From the IMG/VR virus record IMGVR_UViG_3300044675_007236: 64,000 nucleotides of DNA; one strand, written 5' to 3'. Positions within the stretch are counted from its first letter, which is position 1. Each line of letters starts with the position of its first letter. Below are positions 8,271 to 63,808 of this stretch, one piece after another. Position numbers and translations under genes: made by a program. The DNA is from a virus (Duplodnaviria > Caudoviricetes). The notes beneath the pieces were generated by a model. The model did no database searches. It worked only from the letters and a program-made list of their open reading frames with translations, and was not told the origin of the DNA.

Positions 8271-8281
8271 TCGTTATTTCC

Positions 8282-9316: not shown

Positions 9317-9317
9317 G

Positions 9318-19590: not shown

Positions 19591-20479
19591 CGTCAAAGTC
19601 CTCAAGCTCGGAGTTATCGTCCAGTTCGGCCCAGTTTTCAGTTACCTCTTTTTCGATTTCCGGTTCTGTTTGTTTTTCTTCCGGCTTCATGGTGATCTTA
19701 AAATATGGGGAGTTTTGATACCAGTCAACAGGAACCGGTTCTTTTGACCCCATAAGACCTATTGCCGTAGTCCAGCTGTGCGACAACATCTGTTGCCAAG
19801 CTGTAGGTGTAATAAGATACGTGCCATCGCCGTGTGAGTTCATTGCACGCAAATCACCGTCACGCGTGTAACCTAGAATGCACATAGCATGCCCGCCTCT
19901 ACCGGGAATGAACCTCCGTATCACGCGATTAGACGGAATGGTCGAATTACCGTAAGCTATACCAAAATTGATAGCACCTCCACCACCGATAAAATTCAAC
20001 GTTTCTTCGTGATCTCTAGTACACTGCCACGCAGACAAGGCTTTATAAGGTGCGCCTGCCTTATAGTTGGCTTCACTCAAAATCTTGTTGCGAGCGTCGC
20101 GGCCTGGATACGAAGTTGGATAACCAGTCATGCTTTCAGGCGGACAACCAGTTTCCAAGGCTAGTTTAGCTCCGCCGGATATCGTTGAACCGTTATCGGA
20201 CCCAAGCAGCCCGTCGATTCTTTGCGTAGCTAGGTAGGCAAATATACGAGATAACTGCACCTTTATGCCGGTAACAAGAGCACAACGCTCAAGCACAGAC
20301 GAAAGTGAATTGCCCTGGCAACTTCCAATTTGCAGTTGATTTTCGTCGCGGTGCCAATCTAGCGTAACCTCTGCAGGACGGCTGAAAACTCGCCAGGCAG
20401 CGTTATGCATTGGAAGAATAGGAAGCGATTTTAGAAAATTTCGGTCTTCTCGTTCGTAGTTGTAACTGTTACCTAGCAT
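19574..20479 (-). CDS. papain-like (C1-family) cysteine peptidase
   Basis: NQLQIGSCQGN (oxyanion Q, catalytic C), GGHAMCILGY (H), MNSHG (N); likely start 20479 (TAATG overlap). Confidence 0.85.
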   Translation of the reverse strand: MLGNSYNYEREDRNFLKSLPILPMHNAAWRVFSRPAEVTLDWHRDENQLQIGSCQGNSLSSVLERCALVTGIKVQLSRIFAYLATQRIDGLLGSDNGSTISGGAKLALETGCPPESMTGYPTSYPGRDARNKILSEANYKAGAPYKALSAWQCTRDHEETLNFIGGGGAINFGIAYGNSTIPSNRVIRRFIPGRGGHAMCILGYTRDGDLRAMNSHGDGTYLITPTAWQQMLSHSWTTAIGLMGSKEPVPVDWYQNSPYFKITMKPEEKQTEPEIEKEVTENWAELDDNSELEDFDDEIAE

Positions 20480-20865
20480 TATTTCGTGTAACTCCTCAGC
20501 AAGGATTCGTGAGCTTCTTTCGACCAACCGCCTTTCGTCTTAAAATACTCAGCCTCAGACTTTGCTAGCTTTTCAAAAGCTAATTTTCTAGCTGGTTCCT
20601 GCCCGGCTGCTTGAAACTCCCACGCCGCCTTTTCTGTGTCGAGCTCACCGGAAGCGAGCTTGTCCGCAGTAGTAATCTGGTGAACACGCCATAGCTGTTC
20701 ATATGTTTTGAAAGCGTCGGCGGCTAAATCTGCTTTTAGTTGCGAGGACCTAGTTGTAAACCAATTTGTCGGAACTAAAAGAAAAACGCCCAGCAAACCG
20801 CAGATCAAAAGAGACCACGGAAAGCCAGGCGTAGCTTTGTTATCTGCTGTCCATGCAGTTGACAT
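20479..20865 (-). CDS. N-terminally membrane-anchored protein
   Basis: PWSLLICGLLGVFLLVP TM helix then a helical soluble domain; GAGG SD. Confidence 0.7.
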   Translation of the reverse strand: MSTAWTADNKATPGFPWSLLICGLLGVFLLVPTNWFTTRSSQLKADLAADAFKTYEQLWRVHQITTADKLASGELDTEKAAWEFQAAGQEPARKLAFEKLAKSEAEYFKTKGGWSKEAHESLLRSYTK

Positions 20866-43405: not shown

Positions 43406-44494
43406 CTAGACTTCGCCAAGCTTGTACCAACCTTCTTTGCTGATATAGACATTCATCACGTCCGAAAAGTATTTGTTGTATTTAGGTGCAATCTTTTCTA
43501 AAGCAAACTGTTCACCAAATTTACGACAATCTTCCGGTTTAATTTGATCAATAGTTTTGACAGCATTTACAAAATCGGCAAAAGTACGGCAGCGATAACC
43601 CGTTAAACCGTGAGGATTATTTTCCGTAAAAGCCCCCCAGTCCGTGGTGATTGTCGGGGTACCGGAAAGCAAGTTTTCTATTTGCACGCCGCCGAAAGGC
43701 TCAATATATTGGCTGGCTACAAAGCTAGCCTTTGCGTCTCGCATGAGCTTTTTTCGGGTTTCAACATCTGCGTAACCTACGTACTCTACGCACGACGGTA
43801 GTTTGTAGTTGTCGTCTTTTTGGCCTGCAATAACTAACTTTATACCTAGCTTTTCGGCAACTTGTATCGCAATATGTACACCTTTGCCTTCGTAAACACG
43901 CCCAAGATACAAGAAGTAGTCCTGCTTTTTGTCACTGTATTCGAACTCGGACAAATCGAAGTAGTTAGGAATAACTACCTCGTACCAATCCTGATTACAA
44001 GTTTTTACACCTTTAATTCCGCAGTAAGCGTGATAAATGGCGTAAGATTCGAAAACTTTCCATCTGGCCCAGTGACCATCGGCGTATCCTATGCCTGGTT
44101 CTACACATATTAAATCAGGATGAGCGTCGCAAACTGGTCGTACACCAGACCCCCAAAACGGTAGGATAAAGTCTCTTGGTTGTTTTCGTTTAGTTATTTC
44201 AGCAATAGCGCGGCTGTAAAAGGTTTGATACGCGTGATCGTTGACATCAAACTTAAAAAAATGCTTACGCCAATCGTGACTTCCATAGGCCTGAGCTAGA
44301 TCTGCGTTTGTTGTAACCGTAACGTGCTCGTTGCAGTCAAGCTGCGAATCTTCATGACCGTAATGAATGATGTGATGCCCGTGCATTCGCATCATCTTGG
44401 CAAACTTAACTACTTTTTGAGTATAGGCACACGCCACATAGTCTCGGTTAGAAACAGTGTGCGGTAGACCTAGTATGTGAAAACGAAAAGACAT
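43406..44494 (-). CDS. GT4-family glycosyltransferase (GT-B)
   Basis: Start [13 protein letters not shown] at 44494; [39 protein letters not shown] (EX7E motif). Confidence 0.9.
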
Positions 44495-44504
44495 AAAACA
44501 TCCT

Positions 44505-44972
44505 CTACAATAGCGCAGGTAAAATCGCTGTCTTTTTGCGTACGTCTTCGACCGTCGTCTCATTTGCCACACTCGCCGGGAACGATACTGGAGCAGCAGC
44601 ACTAGTCGGCTGCCCTGCGATCCTTGTGACGTTTGCATCTGTGTTTCTGTTCTCAATCGAAAATGTCCGAAGTATCGTTCTTGCCAGGTCTTTCCCATCG
44701 ACTATCCCTGCCGTGAATACGACGTCGTAGTCTTTACCGCCCTCATATACCGCATCGGAAGTGTCGATCACCAGTTCATGGAACCCAGCTTTCCCATCAT
44801 AATCTACGGCGGGTTGGGTTACTCCGGTAGTGAATTCTGTTGTCGAATCTTTGTAAATCGCGACTGTTGGATTTACTGTTGGGGTAGCAGGCAAAATAGC
44901 TTGACTGAACGTGTTGAATTTGACACGGATCTGTTGGCCTTTTTTGAAATCTCCAATGTATTTGCCTGACAT
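44505..44972 (-). CDS. hypothetical Ig-like structural protein
   Basis: 155 aa, beta-rich ([17 protein letters not shown]...[10 protein letters not shown]). Confidence 0.65.
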
Positions 44973-50178: not shown

Positions 50179-50577
50179 TTAGGCGTTACCCGCTAGAGTT
50201 GCAGCTTCTTGGGCTTTCAGAGCCAGTACCGCGTTATACACGGATGGATCTTTAGCTAAAGTGGCAGCAGCTTGTTTGATTGCTTGATCTTCGGCAATAG
50301 CGGCTTGCTTTTGCCCGTAAGGCGTCGAGCTAACTACAGAGCCTAAAGCAGAAACGGCATCACCGAAGCGGCTTTGAGCAGAAGCTTGCTTGACAGGGTT
50401 TTCAACGGTGCGAAGCTGCGCAGCAATCTGTAGCAAGTCTGCAGCTTCTTTTTCGGTAGTCGGTTGAATACCATAGCTTGCAAGTTTGCCAAAGAATACT
50501 TGAGAATGCACGTTGTCGAACAAAGTGTTATAAGCATCATCTGCGTTTGGCAGAGCTGCTTGAGATTCTTTCGACAT
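50179..50577 (-). CDS. hypothetical head-associated protein (K-x-A rich)
   Basis: ATG at 50577 with GGAG SD; helical; 5 of 8 Lys in KxA. Confidence 0.7.
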   Translation of the reverse strand: MSKESQAALPNADDAYNTLFDNVHSQVFFGKLASYGIQPTTEKEAADLLQIAAQLRTVENPVKQASAQSRFGDAVSALGSVVSSTPYGQKQAAIAEDQAIKQAAATLAKDPSVYNAVLALKAQEAATLAGNA

Positions 50578-50600
50578 TCTAGGCTCCAAATGAAATAAAA

Positions 50601-50876
50601 TTAGTTTGCGTTGTTAAGGTAGGTTTCAACCCCGCCGCCAATAGCGTAAGGATCATAACCGTAAGTCCAGTTCCGACTACGCGGAAATGGTTTTGGCTGA
50701 GCTTGTTGAGCTGAGTGGTCTACAGTCCGCAACGTTTGCGTCAAATCTTCTTGGTAACTGCGGTTACCTCCTAGGTCTCTAGGATTAGTAACGTCGACAG
50801 CTTGCGAGACTTGCGAAAACGGCGGTCTCTGAGTAATGCTAACATCAGTGTATGGATCAGGAAAGGCAGCAGACAT
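50601..50876 (-). CDS. hypothetical protein
   Basis: 91-aa ORF with AGGAG SD. Confidence 0.65.
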   Translation of the reverse strand: MSAAFPDPYTDVSITQRPPFSQVSQAVDVTNPRDLGGNRSYQEDLTQTLRTVDHSAQQAQPKPFPRSRNWTYGYDPYAIGGGVETYLNNAN

Positions 50877-50897
50877 TTAAATTGCTCCTTGACCCTC

Positions 50898-50927
50898 AAA
50901 AAGCCCCTGGGTAAGCCCAGGGGCTTT
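50898..50927 (-). terminator. intrinsic terminator after major capsid gene
   Basis: AAGCCCCTGGG-loop-CCCAGGGGCTT plus TTTTT. Confidence 0.9.
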
Positions 50928-50942
50928 AAGACGGATCGCGTG

Positions 50943-51887
50943 TTACTCGAAGTCGACTCGAGCGAGACCTGAAGTATGACCGATTGTTCCACCGAGCGAT
51001 TCGTAAGCGAAGAACTCGATGAAGTAAGCTTCACGACGGATGTACATCGTGGTGTCTTCAAGCATATAGCTCTTACCGATAAACTTAGGATCGGCAAAGT
51101 GATACATGGTACCGGTTGGAACCAGACCCTTCTTGATGGTGATGACCCACTTAACACCCATGCATTCGCTGAGCGTCCAGCCGTTACGCATGATTTCTTC
51201 AGACAAATCACCACCCATTTCGTTGCGTGTAAACTTCGCAACGTCTTTAATAGTGATGTTGTTAAGAAGAACACAGTGAACTTCAAGGTTCGACGGTGTG
51301 CTAGGCATAACCTTCAGGCTATCAAACAGCGTATCACGAGTGATACCGCCGGAGATAGTTCTGTACTGAACAACACCCGAGGTTGGGACGACGAGGTCAG
51401 GGCCAACAAGTGCAGTATTAACCGCGCTGAGGAACTTACCATCTTCTTCAGCCAACATGTCCTTAATAGCGTTGTCGCTAAGAACCTGACGAATGTCCAT
51501 GTACCAAGTTCGAAGTTCATCAACGTCTTTGGTGAACTTAGGTGTCGTAATCCGATCAAAGGTAACCTTGTAACGGTCGCCCTTGATGTAAAGGTTGGTA
51601 GGAAGCGTAGCGAAAGGAATCGAAACAGCCGCAGGGCTGTTTGGTTCTTTATCTACGATCTTAACCGGTTTATCCGTGTCAACCTGACGATCAAGATCGT
51701 CGTTGCTGATTGGAATAGGCGGCATGATGCGGCGAAAAAAACCATCTTCCCGCATTTTAGTGCGTGTGAAGTCGTTAACGGCGTCAACGGCTTGCTTGGT
51801 CAAAGAAGCGTCCGCGGAAGAAAGCTTTTCAAAAATCGCCTGGCTTGCCAGCAAGCTTTCTTCGCGAGTCATTTCAGCAGTAGTCAT
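50943..51887 (-). CDS. major capsid protein (HK97-fold expected)
   Basis: KMREDGFFRRIMPP, YKVTFDRITTPKFTKDVDEL...DIRQ, C-terminal FFAYESLGGTIGHTSGLARVDF; GGAGG SD; followed by a terminator. Confidence 0.85.
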   Translation of the reverse strand: MTTAEMTREESLLASQAIFEKLSSADASLTKQAVDAVNDFTRTKMREDGFFRRIMPPIPISNDDLDRQVDTDKPVKIVDKEPNSPAAVSIPFATLPTNLYIKGDRYKVTFDRITTPKFTKDVDELRTWYMDIRQVLSDNAIKDMLAEEDGKFLSAVNTALVGPDLVVPTSGVVQYRTISGGITRDTLFDSLKVMPSTPSNLEVHCVLLNNITIKDVAKFTRNEMGGDLSEEIMRNGWTLSECMGVKWVITIKKGLVPTGTMYHFADPKFIGKSYMLEDTTMYIRREAYFIEFFAYESLGGTIGHTSGLARVDFE

Positions 51888-51934
51888 TTTAAACCTCCGT
51901 GGTTAACCGGATCTAAGATCCGTTGAAATTAAAG

Positions 51935-52477
51935 TTAGGTAGTTGGAAAAACTGGGAAAGGCCAGAAAGCCAAAGCATTTTGACCGTAACCGTTGTCAAC
52001 CACCCCGCGAGAAACAAAGCCAACAATCATGTTGGTGTAAAGTGTGCCACCTCGCAGCTTACCTGGGGCAGCACTACCCGAAAGGTTTGCCGTCAGCGGT
52101 TGATTGATCGCATACGACCCGCTTACGAAAGCAGTGCTAACAAGCTCGTAAGCTCCGATAGCAACCAAAGCCATGGCTTGACCAGTTGGGCTCATCGGAA
52201 TGAAAACACCGCGGTCTGTCGAGGCATTGCCGCCTTCGTTAGAAACATCAGGATCGTCCGAGTTGTTAAACGAAAACATCGGCATTACCTTGGTGTTACC
52301 GACACCAAGAATAAAGTCGCCGCTGGAATTAAGCGAAACAACCGAACCAGCCAATACGGGCAAATCTCCCGATGGAATAGTCGCAGAAAATTTCGCATGA
52401 TAGTCAACCGCATTCATTTGCGGCCAACCTTTAAGTGCGTTCAATGTGTTAGCAGTCATTTGCCGTGGAGCAGGCAT
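51935..52477 (-). CDS. capsid decoration protein (beta-tulip / gpD-like candidate)
   Basis: AGSVVSLNSSG, GAYELVSTAF, YAINQPLT, IVGFVSRG; immediately upstream of MCP; AGGAGG SD. Confidence 0.65.
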   Translation of the reverse strand: MPAPRQMTANTLNALKGWPQMNAVDYHAKFSATIPSGDLPVLAGSVVSLNSSGDFILGVGNTKVMPMFSFNNSDDPDVSNEGGNASTDRGVFIPMSPTGQAMALVAIGAYELVSTAFVSGSYAINQPLTANLSGSAAPGKLRGGTLYTNMIVGFVSRGVVDNGYGQNALAFWPFPVFPTT

Positions 52478-52519
52478 TTGTAAATCCTCCTGGATTTTGA
52501 TTGATGGCTAAATACGTAA

Positions 52520-52948
52520 TTAAGAACCTGGTGCTTGCAAAACACGCAGGAGAGCAATGTCAGAAGCCTTCTTTTGTGAAGAATGCCGTCCAACGTACGG
52601 ATCGTTAAGACTGCTGTAATTTGCAGTTTTAACAACAGGGTCGTTAACAGGTTGGCCGAGCTCGCCAGCTAGTTTTTCATGTTGACCGCGATATTCGGCC
52701 ATCTTTGTAATAGCAGTAACAAGCAAGTCCAGCGTTTGACCGTGGTCGGCAAGCATTGAGGCAGCGGCCTGCTTTTCATGCTTACCGGCACAGCCGTGTT
52801 GCAACATATGATCTAGAACAGTTTGCTGCTTAGAAGCAGCCGACTTTTCTTGAGCTCGATAACGTTGCGTATCACCAACCAATCGATCAGCAAGTACCGA
52901 CGACGCGGCAATGTACTGAATCATCATCGAGGCAATTTTGGTGTTCAT
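52520..52948 (-). CDS. hypothetical internal head protein (K-x-A rich)
   Basis: 142 aa; 7 of 10 Lys in KxA. Confidence 0.7.
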   Translation of the reverse strand: MNTKIASMMIQYIAASSVLADRLVGDTQRYRAQEKSAASKQQTVLDHMLQHGCAGKHEKQAAASMLADHGQTLDLLVTAITKMAEYRGQHEKLAGELGQPVNDPVVKTANYSSLNDPYVGRHSSQKKASDIALLRVLQAPGS

Positions 52949-52978
52949 AAAGGAATGTCTCCAGTTTTGAAATTGAAA

Positions 52979-54295
52979 TTAAGAACGAGAACGGCTCAAG
53001 ACTTCTTGAATGTAGTCTCGTACTTGTTGTTTAGCGGCTCCCTTTTTAGCAGCTGCAGCTTTGGCATGCGCCTCAACTTCCATCCCCGGAGCAGCTTCGG
53101 CTTTTTCCTTTTCAGGAGGGGCACCTGCTGGAGCTCCGGGAGGCGTACCACCGGCAGCATCGGGAGGCATACCACCGCCAGCACCGCCACCAGCCATGGC
53201 TGCTTCTAGTTCTTCCGGCGAAATTCCTAGCTGCTCGAGCAAGGCAATAAGCTGCTCGATGTCAGCCTCACCGCCACCAGCCATAGCTGCAGCATCGCCC
53301 GGAGGTCCGCCAGCGGCCATCGCAGGGTCCATGCCTGGGTCCATGCCAGGAGCACCGCCGCCACCCATAGCTGCAGGATCAATGCCACCGGGCATTTCAC
53401 CCATAGCTTGCTTTTGAATTTCTCGCGTATACTCAGTTAGAAACGAAGCAACTTTGTCGGCGTCGTCTGAAGCCACTTTAATAATTTGCTCGAGTGAATG
53501 ACTAACCAAGGCATCCGCGGCCTTCTTATCGAAGTTGCCGCTAAGCAATCCGGCTAGTTCCCACCCGGCTTGAGAAGCCGCGTCGACAGCTGACTTTTCG
53601 TCGTCATCGTCGTCATCGTCGTCAGACTTTTCACCACTTCGAAGAGCCGACAAATCAGAACCGTCAATTTTGCCGTTGTTGTTAACGTCAAGTTTCCCTT
53701 GTGCTCCGGTCAGCTCGGCTTTCTTAAGCAAAGCCAACTGAGCCAAAAGCTCGTTTCCAAGCTGGGCGGTGTAACTTGAAAGCTTTTCAATTGACATTGA
53801 AGCATACTTGTAACCGTCTAGTTCGCCGTTGTTGGTTCGAGCAGGGTGGCTCGTATTACCTAAACGACCGCCAGCCGCGTCTTCCTTTTCAGCCTTAGCC
53901 GAGCCAGTTTCAACACCTGGATCTTCGCCAGTAGGTTGCTTCTTTGTTCCGATTTGAAGTTGGTCGCCTGCTGCGGTTCCTGGCGGATTAACAGAACCGT
54001 CTTCAGACTTGCCGTCAACGGCTCGCTTAGCGGCAGCTTTTTTTGCGGCAATATTGTCAGAAGTGCTGTCGACAGAGGGCTTACCTTGGTCAGCCTTAAC
54101 ATCAGCGGTATTCTCGGCAGAGCGATCGCCTTCGGAAGCTTCTTCTGTCGAGTCGTCGACATCCTTAACAGGGTGAGTTGTGGCACCGCCGATGCTACCC
54201 GGCTCAGTGTGAGCTTCAGCGGCATACTTGACATTGCTTTTAACTGCCTGCAAGAATTGTTCGATTGTTGCTATCGAGTTTGCAGATTTGGACAT
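52979..54295 (-). CDS. scaffold-like / prohead core protein
   Basis: Low complexity, acidic, Gly/Pro/Met-rich; sits between protease and capsid genes; one EF-hand-like loop. Confidence 0.65.
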   Translation of the reverse strand: MSKSANSIATIEQFLQAVKSNVKYAAEAHTEPGSIGGATTHPVKDVDDSTEEASEGDRSAENTADVKADQGKPSVDSTSDNIAAKKAAAKRAVDGKSEDGSVNPPGTAAGDQLQIGTKKQPTGEDPGVETGSAKAEKEDAAGGRLGNTSHPARTNNGELDGYKYASMSIEKLSSYTAQLGNELLAQLALLKKAELTGAQGKLDVNNNGKIDGSDLSALRSGEKSDDDDDDDDEKSAVDAASQAGWELAGLLSGNFDKKAADALVSHSLEQIIKVASDDADKVASFLTEYTREIQKQAMGEMPGGIDPAAMGGGGAPGMDPGMDPAMAAGGPPGDAAAMAGGGEADIEQLIALLEQLGISPEELEAAMAGGGAGGGMPPDAAGGTPPGAPAGAPPEKEKAEAAPGMEVEAHAKAAAAKKGAAKQQVRDYIQEVLSRSRS

Positions 54296-54324
54296 TAAAT
54301 ACTCCTTGATCTACGGTTAACCGT

Positions 54325-56949
54325 TTACACGCTAAAAAGTTGATTCTGACAGACGGCAAGCCGTGCTGTCAACGGGAAGTTCGGATTACAAGCAGCTGAA
54401 CGCCAAAGGGCAGCCAGCTTGTACATTGCATAGTCTTTAGCTAACGCTTCGCCTTCTGTGTTGCATTCTGCGAGCTTCTCATAATGACAAATTTTAGGGG
54501 TTTGATAATTTCGACAACAGCCCAACAAGCTTCTCTTATAAACAGATTCTTTAGAAAAAGAGAAATCTTCTGAAAAAGAAGCAGCTAGTAGATTAGCATT
54601 TGCTGTAGCTATTTTATCAATTAACGCAGAAGGTGATCGCTCTATACGTAAAGGCAGCGTCTCATCGGATGCCATTTTGCTGTAAATAGCAGGCAAAACA
54701 GCTTGTGCAGTTTTAAGGTGTTCTTCGGTTTTGGTTAGTCTACTGTAATCAGCGAGACTAAGAAAAATACAACGATCTGCCATAGCAGCCAGTTGGCTAT
54801 CACAAGCAGCAGAGCCAAACGCTGCAAGTTTCTCTACAGGAAAAGGTTTTGTCAGTATGCCTACAAGCAAACTATCCGGTACGTTTGCAGCACCTTCCAT
54901 AGAGGCAAGGGCATAGCCGAGTCGGATTTGAGACGCGGTTTTCTCTGACCAAAACCCGTGTTGGCCGGACTGATAGAGGATTACATCAAGCGGCGCAGTA
55001 GAAGTGCTAGCCAGCTTAATATAATCCTGAAGTTCAAATACGCCGGAATCTGAAGCAGCTTTCGTGAAGTAATCGGCCTTAGCTCCGTAAGCAATACGAT
55101 CAGCCGGTCTAAACACACGTGAAATATCAAACCACGTTGGATCTGGATTATCGACATGAAGATGGTGTAAGTCGCCAGCTACTTTGACCAATCGAGTAAG
55201 ATTGTTTTTACAACCACCGGCTGCACACTTCTCGCTAGTGCAATACTCGTCGCGAGTTCTCGCTGCATGTTTGCAGAACGAGCAAATATCGTTAGGCACG
55301 CGGCAATTGTGGCTGACAAAACCGCCAAGACTGTAGGACTCGTCTTCCTCGACTTCGAAGTTATATGTTTCGACATCCGTTACGTCTCTACTTTCAATAT
55401 CAGCTATTCTGTAAGCGTAACGTTGGTCAGGACAAATCCGCATAGCTGCAGGTTTTTCTCGTAGCTGTTTTCTAGTTAACGTGTAGCTGGCGGCCTTCTG
55501 AGATCCTGAAGCCAACTGCCACAAATCTAAATGGCTAACATTTAACGTATATTCTATCCCGCTATTTTCGTAACCGCTATTTTCACAAAGTGCGTGATCT
55601 ATACGATAAATAGAAGTTGGAATGCCTACTGAGGCCAGCAAATCCCTGCCCTGTAGAACTAAATGCACGTTAGCGGAAGAAAAGTGCCCACCTTTGGCAT
55701 CAGTCCAACCATCGCCGTCCAGCCAAGCGCCTAAAAAAGCTAACTTTATTTCGGTAGCAGCGTTAAATATTTCTGGCGGTATGCGTTTATTTTTACAGCC
55801 TCGGCCAACATACTGTCTTAAAAACTCAGAAAATTCGGTGCTGCGAACGATAACAGCTAAAGCTGCGTTGCTATTCTTTTTAGGCTCAATACTGACGGTT
55901 ATGTCGGGGTAAAGAATTTCAACCAACCTAGGTAAACGTCTTGGAAGCGAATCTGTAAGATTGCAAGTAAACTCCGTACTACAGGCTTTTTCGCCGTTGT
56001 AGCTAAAACTACCTTCTGCCAAGTAATAACCTAATATAGCCGCAAGCGTCGGACAGCTCAAAGCAGCATAACCGTTAAAACGCGTTACAGGCTGATAAAA
56101 AAACCTGTCGCCTTTTTGCAAATGCTCCGCGTGAGTCCAGGCTGCAGGCTCGGCATCAAAAGCTTTTGTGTCTTTAAAATAACGTCTGGCTTTACCTTTA
56201 ACGCTACTAGCAGCACATGCAAATGTCTTTGCCAACATTGGGTGGTCGGCAGTTAACTCCAACGGTAAAGGCAATCCGTTGCATTTAAAAGTGTACGCTT
56301 TACCGGTATATCTACGTCGATTAGTACCAGTTACTCGACGCCAGCGGCCTTTGTGCGTCCAAACATACATACCTGTTTTAATTTCAGCGATGGATAGATA
56401 GCCCTGATCTCTGGTCAAAACAGGATAAGTCGGATCCAGTACACAAGCCATGCTGACCGGGAAATCCTCTCCTCGAGCAATCTTTTCTACCTCAGTATCC
56501 GCTACCAAACCACCGTTACGGTCGGCGGCAGCCTTAGTGGCATTCAAAGCACAGAGAAGTTCAACACGCCGCATATCATCGTTGTACGCTGAAGCTTTCA
56601 CGTGTCCATAAAACGGATCGCCACGTTCTGGCTTGTTTTTATGGTTTCGAAAAAACTTAGCAAACTTTACAAACGTATCGTGATACTTTTTGCAAGTAGC
56701 TTCTTTGAAAGCATCACCGTTGCGATTAGGCCCGTAAGCCTCGCTAGCTCCTAACGCAATTAAGTGAACAGGTATCTCGTCACTTGCAAACTTGTAATTG
56801 TCAATCTGCGGCAAAAAAGAATGACTAGCCGTCTTAAGAAAATCACGACGGTCATTGCCGATAAGCCCGCGGCTACCGATTTTAACAGGCACAACAATTT
56901 GCCTGTCGAACTCCCAACCTGACGGCGATACAAACTTGATATGAGCCAT
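54325..56949 (-). CDS. prohead (capsid maturation) serine protease precursor with intein
   Basis: NRNGDAF, FFRNH, PVSMA|CRVPNDICSFC protease motifs once the intein is removed (spliced ~494 aa). Confidence 0.8.
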   Translation of the reverse strand: MAHIKFVSPSGWEFDRQIVVPVKIGSRGLIGNDRRDFLKTASHSFLPQIDNYKFASDEIPVHLIALGASEAYGPNRNGDAFKEATCKKYHDTFVKFAKFFRNHKNKPERGDPFYGHVKASAYNDDMRRVELLCALNATKAAADRNGGLVADTEVEKIARGEDFPVSMACVLDPTYPVLTRDQGYLSIAEIKTGMYVWTHKGRWRRVTGTNRRRYTGKAYTFKCNGLPLPLELTADHPMLAKTFACAASSVKGKARRYFKDTKAFDAEPAAWTHAEHLQKGDRFFYQPVTRFNGYAALSCPTLAAILGYYLAEGSFSYNGEKACSTEFTCNLTDSLPRRLPRLVEILYPDITVSIEPKKNSNAALAVIVRSTEFSEFLRQYVGRGCKNKRIPPEIFNAATEIKLAFLGAWLDGDGWTDAKGGHFSSANVHLVLQGRDLLASVGIPTSIYRIDHALCENSGYENSGIEYTLNVSHLDLWQLASGSQKAASYTLTRKQLREKPAAMRICPDQRYAYRIADIESRDVTDVETYNFEVEEDESYSLGGFVSHNCRVPNDICSFCKHAARTRDEYCTSEKCAAGGCKNNLTRLVKVAGDLHHLHVDNPDPTWFDISRVFRPADRIAYGAKADYFTKAASDSGVFELQDYIKLASTSTAPLDVILYQSGQHGFWSEKTASQIRLGYALASMEGAANVPDSLLVGILTKPFPVEKLAAFGSAACDSQLAAMADRCIFLSLADYSRLTKTEEHLKTAQAVLPAIYSKMASDETLPLRIERSPSALIDKIATANANLLAASFSEDFSFSKESVYKRSLLGCCRNYQTPKICHYEKLAECNTEGEALAKDYAMYKLAALWRSAACNPNFPLTARLAVCQNQLFSV
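55306..56445 (-). mobile_element. intein with LAGLIDADG homing endonuclease (380 aa)
   Basis: Starts CVLDPTYPVLT; block B ELTADHPML; LGYYLAEG and LGAWLDGDG motifs; ends TYNFEVEEDESYSLGGFVSHN followed by Cys+1. Confidence 0.95.
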
Positions 56950-56961
56950 GTTGGTTCCTGT

Positions 56962-58110
56962 TTAAGGCTTAGTTGCTGCGGGCGTTAAATCACGTAGCTG
57001 CTGCGTCGCTTGTTGTTGTGCGGCCAGATCTTTTCTATACTGTAGTAGACTCCAAATAGCACCGATAGCTGCCGGAATACCGCTAACGCCAAATCGAGCT
57101 AAATTACCGCGAATGACAGGCGAAAACTTATGACCAGGTTGTTTAGGTACGTTGCTAAAAATGTTTTTATTACTTGCAACTGTTGCAGCTTGTTCCGCTT
57201 TTGCCGGGTCAACACTCTGAATATACCCGGAAAGACTTGCAGCTGTTGGTTGTAAGGTGCGGGGTAAATTGGCAGCCAATATGTTAGTCATTTCGCGTTG
57301 CTGCTGGGCGTTTAATGGTTGTAAATTTGCGGCGTAATTGGCTAGTTGAAATTGCTGCGTAGATCCTCCAGTAAGCTTAGGGTGCACAAAGTGATTCCAA
57401 TTGACTGCGTTAGGATTTTGCATCATCCAATGGGCTAAAGCCCGTCGATCTAATCCGTGCAAGCCCGGAACTTTACCTAGTAAATAACCTAAGGCTGGGC
57501 TAGAACCCGCACCAATGCCTGCTGGTACTAAAGCACCTAACCCAGGACTTGAATTAGCGGTACTTTGTAAGGCTTTAACTCGATCAGATTTTAGCTCTGC
57601 CTCGGTTTTAGGCCCAGCCTGCATCGACTTTTCAGCTAAATCTGTAACTTTGTCTTCGACGCCTTTGGTAACGCTTCCTGGATTTAGTGCAAGACCTAGC
57701 CCACCGCCAAGCAGACCGCCAGCGGTAGCACCCTGTAACAAACGACGTTTCCAGTCTTTCTCTTTACGAGAAGCAGCCAGACCGCCAGCACCCAGTGCAC
57801 CAAGACCTGCACCGGCTAAGCCGTAACCGAGCGTGCTACGCAATCCAGGATCGGTGGTGACCCGATCCATCCCAGCGTTGTACGTGCCTTTAGCAAGTGA
57901 AGCAGCTTGTCCAGGCATAGCTTTAAGTGTATCCAAAAAGCCAGCAGCTTGCTTAACTACTTGCGTACCGGTAGAGTTCATCACAAAAGTATTCGCAAGA
58001 GCTGCGGGCGGCATTCGTTGCACTGAGCCTTGATCCAAAGCTTGCTTCCTAAGCAAAAGCAACTTTAGACCTTGCTCGTAAGAAATATTAGCTAAGGATA
58101 CTGGCTTCAT
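56962..58110 (-). CDS. glycine-zipper membrane-active protein (ejection/internal protein candidate)
   Basis: GYGLAGAGLGALGAGGL, GATAGGLLGGGLGLAL, GALVPAGIGAG and GIPAAIGAIWSLL segments. Confidence 0.6.
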   Translation of the reverse strand: MKPVSLANISYEQGLKLLLLRKQALDQGSVQRMPPAALANTFVMNSTGTQVVKQAAGFLDTLKAMPGQAASLAKGTYNAGMDRVTTDPGLRSTLGYGLAGAGLGALGAGGLAASRKEKDWKRRLLQGATAGGLLGGGLGLALNPGSVTKGVEDKVTDLAEKSMQAGPKTEAELKSDRVKALQSTANSSPGLGALVPAGIGAGSSPALGYLLGKVPGLHGLDRRALAHWMMQNPNAVNWNHFVHPKLTGGSTQQFQLANYAANLQPLNAQQQREMTNILAANLPRTLQPTAASLSGYIQSVDPAKAEQAATVASNKNIFSNVPKQPGHKFSPVIRGNLARFGVSGIPAAIGAIWSLLQYRKDLAAQQQATQQLRDLTPAATKP

Positions 58111-59395
58111 TTCGCATCAACTGGGTTGGATTACTTTGGGTACGACGTAGGCCTTCTTCTAGCTTAAGGGTTTCACCCAATTCAAACGGTTCAATGTTAC
58201 CCATGAGCCGTTTGCGAAGCAACGGGCCAAGTGCTGAGGGTTGGTCCGCAAGCCTAGGAGAAAGCTGAACAAGTTCGTTGTAAGCGTTTAAAACCTGGTC
58301 TGGTTCGTACTCGCTAACTGGGTTTTCCGGATCACTCATCATCTGAGTTAAAGCCGTTTGAGCTCGGATCTTACGAAGTTCGTTTAAGTGATCAGGACTG
58401 TCAAGGTTTTGGATTTCAGATTCCAAAGCCGACTGACCGCCCTGAGCTACAGACTCCCCCAGATTTTTCGCTGCCCCCATTCCGAAACCACCGGCGACAC
58501 CGCCTATGATCGAACTCAGGTTTGCTTGCTTAGTTGTCTCAGGCTTGAGCTTGGCATACAAATCGTCAGCTACTTTAGTTGCTTTGGCCGCGACAACAAT
58601 TTGCTTTGCAAGTTTGTCTTCAGCTGCTGCAAGCTTTTCAGCTTGAGCTATACAGTCGTCAATCAAAACGTAGGGAGCCGCTGTGCGATTTACAGGAGCT
58701 TGAAAACCTGCCCATGTTGGCTTGTGATCCGAAGCTTTCTTTTCGTTTGGAAACCTAGAAGCGACGTAACGCATAAGTGCACTACCTGGAGCTCCGTAAT
58801 ACACACCAGCGGCGTGTTCAACTTGAGCAAGCGGTAGTCTGTCATAAGCAGATTTTTGAAAATACGAAACAAGCAAATGCAACTTGTAGTTAAGTAAGTC
58901 TTCAGACGCTACCTTTTCCCGGTTAGCATCCTGCACAAGTCGCTGCTGATAATCTTTACCGTCAAAAGCTTTCTTAATATTGACGTCTTGTTGATAAACA
59001 GGATCAAAAGAAGCGACCTTTTCGGTAATGCCTAAATCCGCTTTTAGCAAACTGCTTTTATCGGCGTAAGTGCGAAACTTAGGCTTAGCAGTAGAAACGT
59101 GTGCAACCTTTTCCTTGGAGCTACCCCAAAGTTGATTATGCACTGTGTCGTAGTCCGCAAGCGGAAAGTTTGCAAGCTTATCTAAAACGCTCGTGTTAGC
59201 TTCCCACTGGGCAAGCTGACGCCCGGTGTTAAAAGCGTTACAAGCCGCTTTGAGAAAACCAGGAGTAAAACTCAATTCCTGTGCCACTTTGTGCATTGCG
59301 TCATTTGGCGACAGCTCCCGGTTATCAACCAAGTCTACAGCCTTTTTAACGCCCGCCATGAGCAGCTCTTCATCTTGTCTACTTAGGTTTTCCAT
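58088..59395 (-). CDS. hypothetical internal head protein (K-x-A rich)
   Basis: 435 aa, helical; 14 of 33 Lys in KxA; IIGGVAGGFGMG segment. Confidence 0.75.
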   Translation of the reverse strand: MENLSRQDEELLMAGVKKAVDLVDNRELSPNDAMHKVAQELSFTPGFLKAACNAFNTGRQLAQWEANTSVLDKLANFPLADYDTVHNQLWGSSKEKVAHVSTAKPKFRTYADKSSLLKADLGITEKVASFDPVYQQDVNIKKAFDGKDYQQRLVQDANREKVASEDLLNYKLHLLVSYFQKSAYDRLPLAQVEHAAGVYYGAPGSALMRYVASRFPNEKKASDHKPTWAGFQAPVNRTAAPYVLIDDCIAQAEKLAAAEDKLAKQIVVAAKATKVADDLYAKLKPETTKQANLSSIIGGVAGGFGMGAAKNLGESVAQGGQSALESEIQNLDSPDHLNELRKIRAQTALTQMMSDPENPVSEYEPDQVLNAYNELVQLSPRLADQPSALGPLLRKRLMGNIEPFELGETLKLEEGLRRTQSNPTQLMRNEASILS

Positions 59396-60386
59396 CTTTT
59401 ATCTCCGTACGACGGAATATACTCTCGTCTACGCCTTGTAGCCCTGCGTTAATTTGTCTACCAGCCCCGACGGCCATAACCTCAGAACTGTCTAATTCGG
59501 CTGCCTGTTCATCATACTGCCCCAAAGGTGTATCGGCATATAGCTTTTTACCTTCGTCACCGACAGTCCAAGGAATTTCAGGCAACATAGCGTTAACGTG
59601 TTTCTCGAACTCATTGTGCCGAGCTTGTTTATCGTCAACACGTTGTTGAATCTCGAGCAACTTAGCGTGTACTACAAACAGTTCCATAACATTGAAACTG
59701 TTAACGCGAAACTGGCCTGCAGCCTGTGCACTCTTGCGACGAATTTGATTGCTCCACTGAGTATCAAGCCAAGATTCAATCTCATCTGGTCTTTCGACTT
59801 TGACGCCTTTTTTAAATCCGCTCAACATAAAGTCACAAAGCAGCGGTCCGCCATAATACGCAAAGAATTTAAGCGTCATATCGAAATGGGGCTTAATCTC
59901 AAACTTCGGTTTTTTATCGTCTCCGTTTTCTTCGTTGACGTCTACAAACCTATCAGAAGCCGGAATAAGAACGTTTCGAAGTATCCAGTCACTGTGCCGT
60001 AAAAAGTCTTTTACGTTAAAAAACAGCTTTTCATACCACTGAATTGTCTCAGGAATGGTTTTGTTTTCTTCCGCGATTTCCTCGTACGACATGCCTGCTA
60101 AAAGCCTGGCTTCAACGACCAAAGACATTTCCGGGTCATTTAGTCGACTGACAAACATATTGTGGGCGTAGTACAACCCAGGATTCTCGTACAGAAGAGC
60201 TATACGCTTAGAACCGCCCTTATTGTAATCAAACAAATAAGACCGATAGCCTCGAATCCATTCGTCGTCATATCGTTTGCAGCGTTCTGGCGGCCAAGCT
60301 GCAAGCATAGCCAAAACTCGTTCGTGCCGCCAAAAAGGCTGCAAGAAAGGGTCGGCTAAGCGTACATTGTTGTAGACTCTAAGCAA
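59379..60386 (-). CDS. hypothetical protein with HTH-like segment
   Basis: TTG start with GAGG SD; LLAGMSYEEIAEENKTIPETIQWY. Confidence 0.65.
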   Translation of the reverse strand: MLRVYNNVRLADPFLQPFWRHERVLAMLAAWPPERCKRYDDEWIRGYRSYLFDYNKGGSKRIALLYENPGLYYAHNMFVSRLNDPEMSLVVEARLLAGMSYEEIAEENKTIPETIQWYEKLFFNVKDFLRHSDWILRNVLIPASDRFVDVNEENGDDKKPKFEIKPHFDMTLKFFAYYGGPLLCDFMLSGFKKGVKVERPDEIESWLDTQWSNQIRRKSAQAAGQFRVNSFNVMELFVVHAKLLEIQQRVDDKQARHNEFEKHVNAMLPEIPWTVGDEGKKLYADTPLGQYDEQAAELDSSEVMAVGAGRQINAGLQGVDESIFRRTEIKDGKPK

Positions 60387-60397
60387 AGTAAGTACCT

Positions 60398-61066
60398 CTA
60401 AACAATCGTGTCAGAACGCAAAGTACAAGCGACTTCAAACGTAAGTACAGTGGCAGTACCTGTAGTTATGAACTCAAGCCACAATGCAGAAGTGCGACAA
60501 CGCATATTAACGTCCTGGTTGTCACGATTCTCGTAGGCTCGATTAATATCAAAAACAAGCTTAGCAGTACCAGACAATACGGAATCAGTCAGCACTAAAC
60601 TGGTAATAGCTGGTTTTGTAGGAATTAGTGGCGGCGTCTGCCAAAGCACAGGTGCCGTATTTGCCGTGGCTACCGCACCCGCATGACTAACATTCAATAC
60701 TAGTTGATTTACAGCTGAAACAGCTGTAATAGTGTGCACGGCGTTGTAAGCAGCTACGTTGCAATTTTTTAGCTCGACGCGATCACCAACGATTAAACCG
60801 TGATCTTCTGATGTAGTTATTTGTAGAAAACCACCAACATTAGCGGACCCTGAAACAACACCAGACGCAGTTACTTCCAAGTCGTTTGCAGCAATACAAG
60901 CTCCACGTCTGTCGTACAAGTTAATTGTAGCCGCTGTAGATGTTCCAGCTGTTTGCGTAACAATTAGACGATCTAGTTCACCTCTAGGGGGTGCTGGAAT
61001 TCTTACAAAACCTGCGACACCTCTGGTAAGTACGCACTGAACAGTTCTTGAATAACCCGCTGTCAT
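60398..61066 (-). CDS. structural protein with small beta-barrel repeat unit
   Basis: ITTSEDHGLIVGDRVEL...YNAVHTITAV motif of the HG-x-x-x-GD type common in phage virion proteins. Confidence 0.6.
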   Translation of the reverse strand: MTAGYSRTVQCVLTRGVAGFVRIPAPPRGELDRLIVTQTAGTSTAATINLYDRRGACIAANDLEVTASGVVSGSANVGGFLQITTSEDHGLIVGDRVELKNCNVAAYNAVHTITAVSAVNQLVLNVSHAGAVATANTAPVLWQTPPLIPTKPAITSLVLTDSVLSGTAKLVFDINRAYENRDNQDVNMRCRTSALWLEFITTGTATVLTFEVACTLRSDTIV

Positions 61067-61073
61067 GCTTCAC

Positions 61074-63566
61074 CTAGTTCCTGGAAAGTTCGTCTAAGTT
61101 AATGTCACCTTCGTCAAACGGCGATTCAACTGATTTTTCCTTGAGGAACAAGGTTATATCGCCAACAGCCTCAAACGCGTTACGTAAACTGTCTTCTAGC
61201 TCTGGCATGTCAGACTTTCCGTAACGATCTTCAAATTCTTCACCGTGCCAGTAAAAGTTCATCAGAAGTCGACCGAGCGAATCTAAAGATTCTACTAGCG
61301 AAGAAAGATGGCGTTCGACAAGTGAGTCTTGTCTGACAGACTTAAGCATACCGGAAATCATCGTGGTGTCGAAAACTTCTTTTTGCCCTTGCGAACCGGC
61401 TTGCTGTGCAACCTGCATCGACGTATTGAAATCTTGAGATTCATAATTTTGCCACGGATCCCAAACACCAGGATCAGTTTGATCTGCACTCATGTGATTT
61501 AGACGGTAAACAGCATTGCCGCCGTATTGCGTGTTAGCCGAAGTACGCGGCCCGTATTGCTCGGTGCTGCGTTCGTCGGCTAGGTCGTCGTAGACAGGGG
61601 CGTCTGGTCCACCTGCCAATACACTGTAATTAGGATTAGCCTGCTTGTCGCTGCCGTACCCGGCTGCGTACTCAATGCGGTAAACAGCACTACCACGAGC
61701 CTCGGCTTCTTTAAGAATTTCTCGAGCCTGCCCTTCACGCATACCGTGTACGCTTACCAAATCCCACAAAGCAGCTCGCTTGGAGAAGCTGTTTTTACCT
61801 AGCGCGGAGTCGATAAAAACATCTGTTCCATTGTTAAAAACCTTTAGCCGAGCTGTCTTTTCGTGAATAAGAAGTTGAATGTCGTCAATCTTGCCTAGGC
61901 GAATTGGGCTTTCTTCGTTACCTCCGACACCTACATAAGCATCAGGTAGCTTTAAAAATTTGAAGCTACCTGGAACACGCAGCTCGCCAGAGATAGCTCG
62001 AAGTTTAGTACCTCGCTTGTTTTCTTTGTCAACGCAAAGCAAAGCGTCGTAGGTGCTTGGTTGATTGTAGCCATCCATAGAGTAAGGCTCGGTAATTTTT
62101 TGAAGCCTAGGCATAGTCGATGTTCGGTCGTCACGATAATCAGGATGTACAAAAAAATCGACTTTGTAATTGCCGTCGCCAAGAGCTTCAATTACCTTGA
62201 ACGGTACAGTTGCCGAACCTGTTGAATCTAAGCCAAGGTACGTGCTACCTTCAGACAAAGTGCTGGAATCCGAAAGAGATTCAAACCAGTCATTCCATTC
62301 GTCGCGTTCGCTTATCTGGTCTGCAAAGATATTGGTAGCGTGGGTGTTTAGCCAACGGCGACCTTCGCCGCCCTCGCCAAGTCTTACAACGATAGCAAGG
62401 GGCTCACGACCGCGGTTGCTGCTACCGTGAGTAACAACTAACATTTTGTTGAATTGACCGGGTCGCTCTAAAACTCGATAAAGAGCTGTCTCAGACGGGT
62501 TAGTCAGTTTTTGCTCAATTTGTGTGTTATAGGTGCGGCTAACTTGAATGCCGCGACGATGATCGACAATCAGCATTGTGTCGTTAAGCAATCGCTCGCG
62601 TTCTGCATCGTCGAGCTCGGGCATGCGGTTAGTTGTAACTGACTCTTGCGTGTAAAGCCTTAGGGCTCCTGCTTTTACGTGATCGACACTTTCAGGTTTT
62701 GCTTCAGCAAAAAGCCGCATACCTTCTAACTTAGGCTTAACCGAAGCTTGCTTTTTGACAATACTTTGTGCAGCTTGTTTAGTGTTTGCTTTGCACGCTG
62801 TACCCCAACGAACAAAGCAGTCGTTACCGTAAAATCTACTAAAAGCAGATTTAATTAACGGATATCGCTCAGATGCTAAGTAAGCCAGTTGCAGCATTTC
62901 AAAACTTTGTGGCATAACGTTGTTAAAGTCAAACGCAGCGGCATTCTTTGCCAAAGCCGCCTTAAATGGATCGTTAACGACTAAAGCCTGGTCAAGCTTG
63001 CGCCCATTAAGCTCGTTACCAGTTGTCCTGAATAACGAACTTGCAGCCTTAGTTTTAAAAGCTGCAAGCATTGGAAGAACTTGGCTAAAAGCAGATTTAG
63101 GCAACTGTTTAGGGCGGTAAGTGTCGCTGGCTCGCTTACCGCCGCCGATTGAAGGCGGAATGGAAAGCGTTCGAACGTCAGGGTAAACGCCACCAAGATC
63201 TCGAAGCTTACTTGCCGACGATTCACCTAGTATGTGCGGCTTTCGACTCATGACGTAATTGATCCAGTTTTCTTTCATCGGAACAAACGAATCGTTGTTC
63301 TTGATGTAAAGCAGCTCGTGCCCCTTAAGATCACCGTTAAGAAAAAAGACCGGAGCATACAACCATTGAGAACCAATTTGAAACCCGAAAACACCCATAG
63401 CTTTCGTGTTGTCTTCATTACGATCAACAAGTTGAAAGCCGATCATGTAGTCAAGCAAACGAGGGGCTTTATCTCGCAGATAAGCATAAGCTAGGCTAGA
63501 AAAAGCTTGTTCAAACTCGGTCTCTCCACCGCTACCACCGATACTAGCCTGCTTAATCGCGTTCAT
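61074..63566 (-). CDS. large hypothetical head-associated protein (830 aa)
   Basis: Intact long ORF; clustered KxA motifs flanking a KxA-poor central domain; function unassigned. Confidence 0.75.
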   Translation of the reverse strand: MNAIKQASIGGSGGETEFEQAFSSLAYAYLRDKAPRLLDYMIGFQLVDRNEDNTKAMGVFGFQIGSQWLYAPVFFLNGDLKGHELLYIKNNDSFVPMKENWINYVMSRKPHILGESSASKLRDLGGVYPDVRTLSIPPSIGGGKRASDTYRPKQLPKSAFSQVLPMLAAFKTKAASSLFRTTGNELNGRKLDQALVVNDPFKAALAKNAAAFDFNNVMPQSFEMLQLAYLASERYPLIKSAFSRFYGNDCFVRWGTACKANTKQAAQSIVKKQASVKPKLEGMRLFAEAKPESVDHVKAGALRLYTQESVTTNRMPELDDAERERLLNDTMLIVDHRRGIQVSRTYNTQIEQKLTNPSETALYRVLERPGQFNKMLVVTHGSSNRGREPLAIVVRLGEGGEGRRWLNTHATNIFADQISERDEWNDWFESLSDSSTLSEGSTYLGLDSTGSATVPFKVIEALGDGNYKVDFFVHPDYRDDRTSTMPRLQKITEPYSMDGYNQPSTYDALLCVDKENKRGTKLRAISGELRVPGSFKFLKLPDAYVGVGGNEESPIRLGKIDDIQLLIHEKTARLKVFNNGTDVFIDSALGKNSFSKRAALWDLVSVHGMREGQAREILKEAEARGSAVYRIEYAAGYGSDKQANPNYSVLAGGPDAPVYDDLADERSTEQYGPRTSANTQYGGNAVYRLNHMSADQTDPGVWDPWQNYESQDFNTSMQVAQQAGSQGQKEVFDTTMISGMLKSVRQDSLVERHLSSLVESLDSLGRLLMNFYWHGEEFEDRYGKSDMPELEDSLRNAFEAVGDITLFLKEKSVESPFDEGDINLDELSRN

Positions 63567-63589
63567 CTTTAGTTTCCGTTAAGTGAATA

Positions 63590-63808
63590 CTACTTCTTCC
63601 AACCGGCTGCTATGTCAAAACCGGAAAGATGTGAAAGCATATTTTGAGCTTCTTGTGTGGCAACTGCTTCAAAAAAACTAGCTATCTTTTCTTTGTCTGC
63701 ATTAACTGTTTTTTTCTTTGGCTTTTTCTTCGTGCCTGTTGTAGGTGGAAGTAAATAAGCCGCAGCTAACTTAGAATCAAAGCCGCCCAGTGGAGGTAAA
63801 ATTGACAT
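63590..63808 (-). CDS. small basic hypothetical protein
   Basis: 72 aa; TKKKPKKK; contains KLA and KIA. Confidence 0.6.
   Translation of the reverse strand: MSILPPLGGFDSKLAAAYLLPPTTGTKKKPKKKTVNADKEKIASFFEAVATQEAQNMLSHLSGFDIAAGWKK

Follow-up and report, generated by a model that had tools for sequence, protein, structure and literature searches.

The prohead protease of phage T4, gp21 (MEROPS S77), follows the rule L/I-x-E, and phiKZ gp175 and SPN3US gp245 follow the rule A/S/G-x-E. Herpesvirus assemblin (MEROPS S21) acts at release (R) and maturation (M) sites with the consensus (V/L/I)-x-A|S, and HK97 gp4 (MEROPS S78), a capsid protease from the same structural clan, cuts gp5 at Lys103|Ser104, the delta domain being digested to small peptides. 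To our knowledge, HK97 lacks a separate scaffold and a K-x-A rule has not been described for it, and prohead-protease codes are experimentally known for few phages, T4 and the phiKZ group among them, whose codes end in Glu. In SPN3US, gp245 cuts after A-X-E (P3-P2-P1) with a preference for Ser at P1′, and the head proteins carry long, multiply cut propeptides ahead of a motif-free mature domain (PMC10052503). Here, we describe the motif K-x-A (Lys, any residue, Ala) in the head-assembly module of the virus IMGVR_UViG_3300044675_007236, of which we analyzed a stretch of 64 kb (hereafter, the window) and scored 61 open reading frames (ORFs). The motif is probably the P3-x-P1 cleavage code of the phage’s own head-maturation serine protease, which would cut after Ala, with Ser or Ala as the following residue.

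Results

K-x-A is enriched in six head-assembly proteins

The head-assembly module occupies positions 50179-63808, and every gene in it lies on the minus strand. In an earlier, sequence-only reading of the window, K-x-A motifs had been counted by hand in these genes and interpreted as the cleavage code of the prohead protease. We compared the K-x-A count of each protein with counts in shuffles of its sequence, from which the per-protein z values below derive, for the 61 window ORFs and for the complete genome of the cultured relative Arash, and found that the enrichment was concentrated in head-module genes. Six window proteins stood out, and none of the remaining 55 ORFs scored a z of 3 or above. 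The motif takes up 14 of the 33 Lys residues of a 435-residue protein (58088-59395; z 5.4), 7 of 10 in a 142-residue protein (52520-52948; z 5.4) and 5 of 8 in a protein encoded downstream of the major capsid protein (MCP), which has 136 residues, or 132 counted from the first ATG (50179-50589; z 3.0). An 830-residue protein (61074-63566) has 13 of 47 Lys residues in K-x-A, clustered around a motif-poor core (z 5.3). All these figures reproduced the hand counts, as did the 15 sites of an acidic, low-complexity, scaffold-like protein of 438 residues (52979-54295; z 4.4), whose Lys total is 33 rather than about 34.

The sixth protein is an 874-residue prohead protease precursor containing an intein (54325-56949). 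Its exteins have 18 of 34 Lys residues in K-x-A (4.4 expected; z 7.2), and the whole precursor has 21 of 54 (z 6.4), with the intein itself, which had been put forward as an internal control, contributing 3 of 20 (1.9 expected; z 0.85). The other proposed controls behaved similarly. The motif is absent from the four Lys residues of a 180-residue protein that the sequence-only reading labelled a decoration protein (51935-52477), and it occurs at 1 of 22 in ORF 37041-39869, as claimed; the sheath identity given to this ORF could not be confirmed because it has no PHROG match. As had also been noted, the MCP (314 residues; 50943-51887) contains exactly one K-x-A, K31-Q-A33, and a Gly-rich protein of 382 residues (56962-58110) contains two, both N-terminal (residues 22 and 53), and is not enriched.

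The signal is specific and acts at the protein level

When about 2,000 residue pairs (gaps of 0-4) were scanned in the six proteins, K.A, with the dot standing for any residue, ranked first, with 75 occurrences against 22.5 expected (z 12.7); the runner-up pattern reached z 5.0. With the protease counted in its spliced form, 72 of the 165 Lys residues of the six proteins lie in K-x-A (K.A z 12.6). Ala is abundant in all six proteins and helices are predicted for several, which would suit an explanation by composition, by the secondary structure of Lys/Ala-rich helical proteins or by a signal in the DNA. Several observations speak against such a by-product. Whole-protein shuffles and shuffles within short blocks kept z at 10-13; the latter, in blocks of 10, 15 and 25 residues, left a pooled z of 10.4-11.3, so that the enrichment outlasts control for Lys and Ala content and local richness in these residues is not its cause. 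The patterns R.A, K.S, K.G, K.T, K.V, Q.A, E.A and A.K had z values between -2.5 and +0.8, none of them enriched, and no matching enrichment appeared at i+3 or i+4: K..A was outside the top 12 patterns in the window and reached z 4.2-4.4 in two relatives only. At the DNA level, AAR-NNN-GCN occurred 75 times in frame, compared with 12 and 7 times in the other two frames, and the sites draw on all Lys and all Ala codons; the signal therefore resides at the protein level. The enrichment also holds at 26% identity and in the Gram-positive phage G. Taken together, the shuffles, the frame test and the specificity test rule out composition, helical periodicity and a DNA-level signal as the cause. A composition artefact is effectively excluded, and we regard the by-product explanation as a whole as scarcely credible.

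K-x-A is maintained in distant relatives

A search with the MCP recovered 15 IMG/VR contigs of 150-208 kb, with MCP identities from 96% to 29%, as well as the cultured Salmonella phage Arash, the Vibrio phage D69 group and Bacillus phage G. In 12 contigs that share the head module, down to 26% identity, the enrichment is found again in these six families and not in adjacent ones. Across these contigs, z ranged over 3.5-5.9 for the 435-residue family, 4.1-7.6 for the protease, 2.6-5.2 for the 142-residue family, 2.4-5.8 for the scaffold-like protein (9-16 sites) and 2.3-5.3 for the 136-residue protein, two sites of which are kept in nearly all orthologs. An unbiased scan of six of the 12 contigs placed K.A at the top in each (z 9.4-12.3). 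It ranked first, too, in the Arash (z 6.0), D69 (z 7.3) and phage G (z 4.1) head modules and in those of contigs L013 (z 5.0) and L015 (z 6.8).

The alignments revealed that some K-x-A columns are fixed, whereas many other sites fall at new columns in divergent orthologs while their density is unchanged. As far as alignments can tell, such turnover at constant density points to selection on a short linear motif and not to inherited sequence alone.

In the complete Arash genome (243 ORFs), three ORFs exceeded z 3. Two of them, the head-module genes gp220 and gp223, adjoin the protease gp222 and the MCP; the third encodes 85 residues with two sites only. The Arash protease gp222 scored z 2.3 in this genome-wide scan, and gp225, which had been dropped from it by ORF overlap, scored z 4.3 when tested alone. 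K-x-A is not enriched in the Arash RNA polymerase protein gp216. In the published Arash virion proteome, 116 proteins are called structural and the RNA polymerase beta subunit gp206 tops the spectra (PMC10585845); its abundance could reflect either a packaged polymerase or a preparation rich in lysate protein.

Some relatives show patterns of their own. The most extreme saturation that we saw is in contig L015, whose MCP is 29% identical to that of the window: directly upstream of the MCP lie three small ORFs in which K-x-A takes up 12 of 15 (7897-8490), 4 of 4 (8676-8957) and 6 of 7 (8954-9346) Lys residues. In the head proteins of contigs L006 and L007, K...D ranks second (z 8.8 and 7.2, respectively), and the resulting K-x-A-x-D is a lineage-specific preference at P2′.

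The protease resembles T4 gp21 and assemblin and carries conserved K-x-A sites

The protease consists of an N-terminal catalytic domain, split by the intein, and a helical C-terminal domain. We built an AlphaFold2 (AF2) model from an intein-less ortholog (mean predicted local distance difference test score, pLDDT, 64.5) and compared it exhaustively with 48,161 chains using VIA-align. The top match was T4 gp21 (5jbl_A; Z 8.2, root-mean-square deviation 3.6, 141 of 165 residues), followed by the protease of varicella-zoster virus (VZV; 1vzv_A, Z 6.6); the human cytomegalovirus (HCMV) protease reached Z 4.8. These matches of a predicted structure argue, with moderate confidence, for a T4 gp21/assemblin fold. 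The candidate catalytic residues, H103 and S166, are unchanged across 10 orthologs with identities as low as 25%.

A PDB sequence search with the protease gave no match. Its relatives in Arash (gp222), D69 (0270) and phage G (gp19) match the head maturation protease family phrog_18299 with E-values of 2e-6 to 3e-19, and tblastn with the window-clade protease against the Arash, D69 and phage G proteases gave E-values from 5e-18 (Arash gp222) to 2e-3; the link of the window protease to a curated family is thus transitive only, through these relatives. Phage G gp19 has been named a head maturation protease (bioRxiv 10.1101/2024.12.16.628780). At E-values up to 0.001, the family comprises 3,864 clusters at 50% identity. 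All of 109 intein-less representatives proved to be enriched in K-x-A, with a median of 14 sites per 28 Lys residues, compared with 3.6 expected, and a minimum z of 3.25.

The intein (Pfam LAGLIDADG_3) covers protease residues 169-548 (55306-56445, minus strand) and is inserted after S166-M-A, two residues past S166. Its position is confirmed by the intein-less orthologs, which have about 494 residues in contigs L001-L006 and L010-L012, and 570 and 612 residues in L013 and L015, respectively. In the protease family (window 54325-56949; L007:3397-7299; representatives P0002-P0150), inteins have several insertion points. Breaks in profile matches suggest insertions at about profile positions 45 and 70-73 and, next to the invariant His and Ser, at about 96-103 and 163-174, respectively. 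Two inteins are present in some members of 1,240-1,301 residues, and most family members have none.

Three of the protease’s K-x-A sites, all encoded on the minus strand, occupy positions at which the protein might process itself. K39-T-A41, followed by Ser (56827-56835), lies ahead of the catalytic domain, where the first 42 residues of the model have pLDDT below 50, and is a candidate N-terminal activation site; it is present in 8 of 10 orthologs and in 100 of the 109 representative proteases. K630-A-A632, followed by Ser-Asp (55054-55062), is a candidate site for release, situated in the linker that follows the catalytic domain. Its Lys and Ala are invariant in 10 of 10 aligned orthologs (K250 and A252 of A1), the site occurs in 93 of the 109 representatives, and it falls 10-15 residues past the modelled catalytic domain, within a low-confidence segment of the model (231-286). 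Finally, K844-L-A846 (54412-54420), 28 residues before the C-terminus, is a candidate tail-release site, found in 8 of 10 orthologs and 61 of the representatives.

Site positions in the capsid protein and other predicted substrates

The MCP was identified through phrog_2522 (major head protein) and by tblastn matches to the Arash “major capsid protein” and the phage G “major head protein”. Its single site, K31-Q-A33 (51789-51797, minus strand), sits at the border between a variable N-terminal stretch and a highly conserved body, and we predict it to be the boundary between leader and mature protein. K31 and A33 are invariant in 13 aligned MCPs, with identity down to 28%, and the Arash and D69 MCPs have K-x-A in the same alignment column; among 19 capsid proteins compared, 18 keep both the Lys and the Ala, the exception being phage G. 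If the bond after Ala is cut, by analogy with related proteases, the mature MCP would have 281 residues and start with VDAVNDF. The predicted mature parts of nine representative MCPs contain 2 K-x-A against 10.8 expected, a sign of motif avoidance that is suggestive at most because the nine sequences are not independent. The AF2 model of the MCP (mean pLDDT 47.6; residues 1-145 below 50) was too poor to place K31-A33 on the HK97 fold.

Two of the enriched proteins combine site-dense regions with a motif-free domain. In the 435-residue protein, all 14 sites fall within residues 1-291, leaving a C-terminal region of 144 residues free of the motif; in 12 orthologs this domain has no site, against 7.0 expected, and it is a candidate mature product. 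In the 830-residue protein, sites at residues 5-274 and 570-643 flank a motif-free core of 298 residues, and the aligned core region has no site in 7 orthologs, where 4.7 were expected, which suggests a putative mature domain. The 142-residue protein would be cut into pieces of at most 31 residues, and the predicted pieces of the site-dense regions of the head proteins are about 5-60 residues long. The 382-residue Gly-rich protein is a possible short-leader substrate, for which its two sites give no more than a hint.

The 830-residue protein had been a portal candidate. It matches the Arash structural protein gp218 (BLASTP, 3e-8) and not the phage G portal, and since the Arash portal is gp204, located elsewhere in that genome, the assignment fails; for the same reason, the portal of the window’s phage probably lies outside the window. 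An ESM Atlas search with the 830-residue protein found nothing. The annotated Arash portal gp204 adjoins a large RNA polymerase gene, and the loci that bear on gp218 and the portal are window 61074-63566, L016:5983-7830 and L021:30120-31859.

These site positions bear on a second explanation, in which K-x-A is not a proteolytic signal: it could serve as a docking or packaging motif that brings proteins into the prohead, with the protease, scaffold or interior of the shell as possible binding partners, or a Lys-modifying enzyme could act on it. The enrichment does mark proteins expected in the prohead interior, three proteins have the motif within their first 7 residues, like a tag, and a strict Lys that Arg does not replace would suit a Lys-modifying enzyme as well. 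Nevertheless, Pfam and PHROG searches of the head module revealed no candidate for a modifying enzyme or a reader, and a motif that takes up 40-70% of the Lys residues and turns over between orthologs looks more like a site of degradation than like a docking tag. Moreover, the positions concerned are classic for processing: a single invariant site marks the border of the MCP leader, and others bracket the protease domain. Targeting and cleavage are not exclusive either, as T4 capsid-targeting leaders end in the cleavage motif. We consider a non-proteolytic role very unlikely.

Residues around the motif and the bond that would be cut

If the motif is a cleavage signal, the residues next to it bear on the bond that is cut. 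The residue that follows the motif’s Ala is Ser at 20 and Ala at 20 of the 72 sites (32 others), compared with about 14 expected for Ser and Ala together, and K.A[SA] occurred 40 times against 4.4 expected; this preference describes P1′ only if cleavage falls directly after Ala. The extended logo reads Glu at -1 (17 vs 4.5 expected), Lys, any residue, Ala, Ser or Ala, and Asp (17 vs 4.7). The invariant third position, which would be P1, is Ala and not Glu, and neither E.A nor K.E-type patterns are enriched. The sequence-only reading had proposed a specificity different from the Glu-ending rules of T4 and of phiKZ and SPN3US, and the Ala at the third position bears this out.

Sequence statistics fix the motif and not the bond, and the same code could also be cut after Lys (K|x-A), with Lys at P1 and Ala at P2′. 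HK97-type prohead proteases do cut after Lys, for example at Lys103|Ser104 of gp5, and P1 and P2′ share one face of an extended strand, so an i/i+2 pattern is compatible with this arrangement. It would, however, pair a fully variable P1′ with an invariant Ala at P2′, which is unusual, and it leaves aside the Ser or Ala that follows the motif at 40 of 72 sites, as expected of P1′ after a cut at Ala. The best structural matches of the protease, gp21 and assemblin, also speak against it. We favor the P3-x-P1 layout with a cut after Ala by analogy, because T4, phiKZ and herpesvirus proteases use this frame and because the layout of the sites is assemblin-like. The same frame, with Ser favoured at P1′, is found in SPN3US (PMC10052503). 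A cut after Lys is, in our judgement, unlikely.

Gene content of the head module and other window genes

In transcription order, the module begins with a 72-residue gene (63590-63808), which is followed by the gp218 homolog, genes of 222 (60398-61066) and 335 residues (59379-60386), and the 435-residue protein. Next come, in this order, the genes for the 382-residue Gly-rich protein, the protease, the 438-residue scaffold-like protein, the 142- and 180-residue proteins and the MCP, and relatives keep the same surroundings of the protease gene; a 91-residue gene (50601-50876) lies between the MCP and the 136-residue protein. Over the whole module, Pfam and PHROGs matched only the LAGLIDADG domain of the intein and, weakly, “major head protein” for the MCP.

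Elsewhere in the window, a 430-residue protein (43406-44698) matches the phage glycosyltransferase family phrog_3408 (E 3e-195). Two ORFs outside the head module had borderline K-x-A scores, namely 20479-20865 (5 of 12 Lys residues; z 2.9, p 0.014) and 10118-11827 (4 of 14; z 2.8, p 0.02). About one such score is expected by chance among 61 ORFs, and the two could encode further packaged proteins.

Discussion

The earlier proposal that K-x-A is recognized by the prohead protease is supported by the retention of the motif in relatives, the site at the MCP boundary, the gp21/assemblin-like fold, the sites that flank the protease domain and the lack of enrichment in the intein, all of which are read from sequences and models. 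From the observed motif statistics, conservation, fold match and site positions, we infer that cutting occurs, which bond is cut and what becomes of the fragments. The recognition motif, in its extended form, would be E-K-x-A-(S/A)-(D). Splicing of the intein would rebuild the active site of the protease, which, inside the prohead, would hold Lys at P3 and Ala at P1 and cut after Ala. It would free itself at the conserved sites ahead of and just past its catalytic domain and take the 33-residue leader off the capsid protein. The scaffold-like proteins would be reduced to peptides of about 5-60 residues able to exit the shell, as would the long N-terminal stretches of further head proteins, and the motif-free domains would stay as mature head components.

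Several points weigh against this interpretation. The match to the gp21 fold is moderate and comes from a model with a mean pLDDT of 64.5; a Foldseek search of the PDB with the same model was not significant (E 0.35), and no Pfam protease family was found for the window protein or its intein-less orthologs at E-values up to 1. Conserved K-x-A motifs also lie inside the folded catalytic domain, at residues 82, 95, 139 and 156, where they could have a structural role instead of being cut. We place the scissile bond by analogy, and the Arash virion proteome (PMC10585845), which lists coverage and spectral counts, mentions neither termini nor a protease. The motif had further been claimed to predict which proteins lie inside the prohead. 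Such a prediction is convincing for proteins with many sites and not for those with one or two, which the motif cannot classify.

The concept of a prohead-protease code is known; what is new here is the specificity, the assemblin-like junction and the spread over a huge lineage. We found no published K-x-A rule for any phage in the literature searched, in which coverage of subscription journals was poor, and the rule is likely unpublished. A Lys-x-Ala rule would be a new specificity class. It would separate processed, head-internal proteins from shell and tail proteins by sequence in an almost uncharacterized lineage, and it would predict the mature ends of the MCP and other head proteins, which would be useful for structural work. 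Since cultured relatives exist in Arash, the Vibrio phage D69 group and phage G, the rule is testable at once.

We put forward, more tentatively, a broader proposal: that a very large lineage of big phages encoding multi-subunit RNA polymerases of their own (about 3,900 protease clusters, including those of Arash, D69 and phage G) follows an Ala|Ser/Ala rule of the assemblin type, in which P3 is Lys, and has a protease-linker-scaffold fusion with equivalents of the release and tail sites. This is possible rather than probable. If true, no other phage system so far would come as close to the herpesvirus protease-scaffold precursor, and the head-internal proteome and all mature termini would become predictable from sequence for thousands of uncultured phages. 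The Ala-Ser junction and the fusion of protease and scaffold would tighten the evolutionary link between phage and herpesvirus capsid proteases.

Comparison with known systems

Of the described systems, HK97 gp4 shares with the window protease, on the reading favoured here, a Lys that is part of the cleavage site, and the window protease differs from it in having no Pfam S78 match. The resemblance to T4, phiKZ and SPN3US is broader: a P3-x-P1 motif recurs in several head proteins, at the leader boundary of the MCP and on both flanks of the protease, T4 gp21 is the best structural match of the protease domain, and, as in SPN3US, head proteins have multi-site N-terminal regions before a motif-free domain. 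Unlike in these phages, P1 in the window would be Ala instead of Glu, and P3 is strictly Lys. The window protease further differs from gp21 in its C-terminal domain of about 250 residues, its active-site intein and its lack of a match to Pfam S77 or a related family.

Compared with assemblin, the window system lacks the hydrophobic P3 (V/L/I), in place of which Lys is strict and without substitution. Its sites number in the dozens and are spread over several proteins, compared with two in each herpesvirus precursor, and sequence similarity is undetectable. The likenesses are nonetheless considerable. The VZV and HCMV proteases are the next-best fold matches, and the motif’s Ala is followed by Ser or Ala at 40 of the 72 sites. 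Moreover, the protease is fused to a scaffold-like C-terminal region; the invariant site of the connecting linker and a second, common one some 30 residues short of the C-terminus recall the R and M sites of the herpesvirus precursor, an analogy drawn solely from predicted structure and site position.

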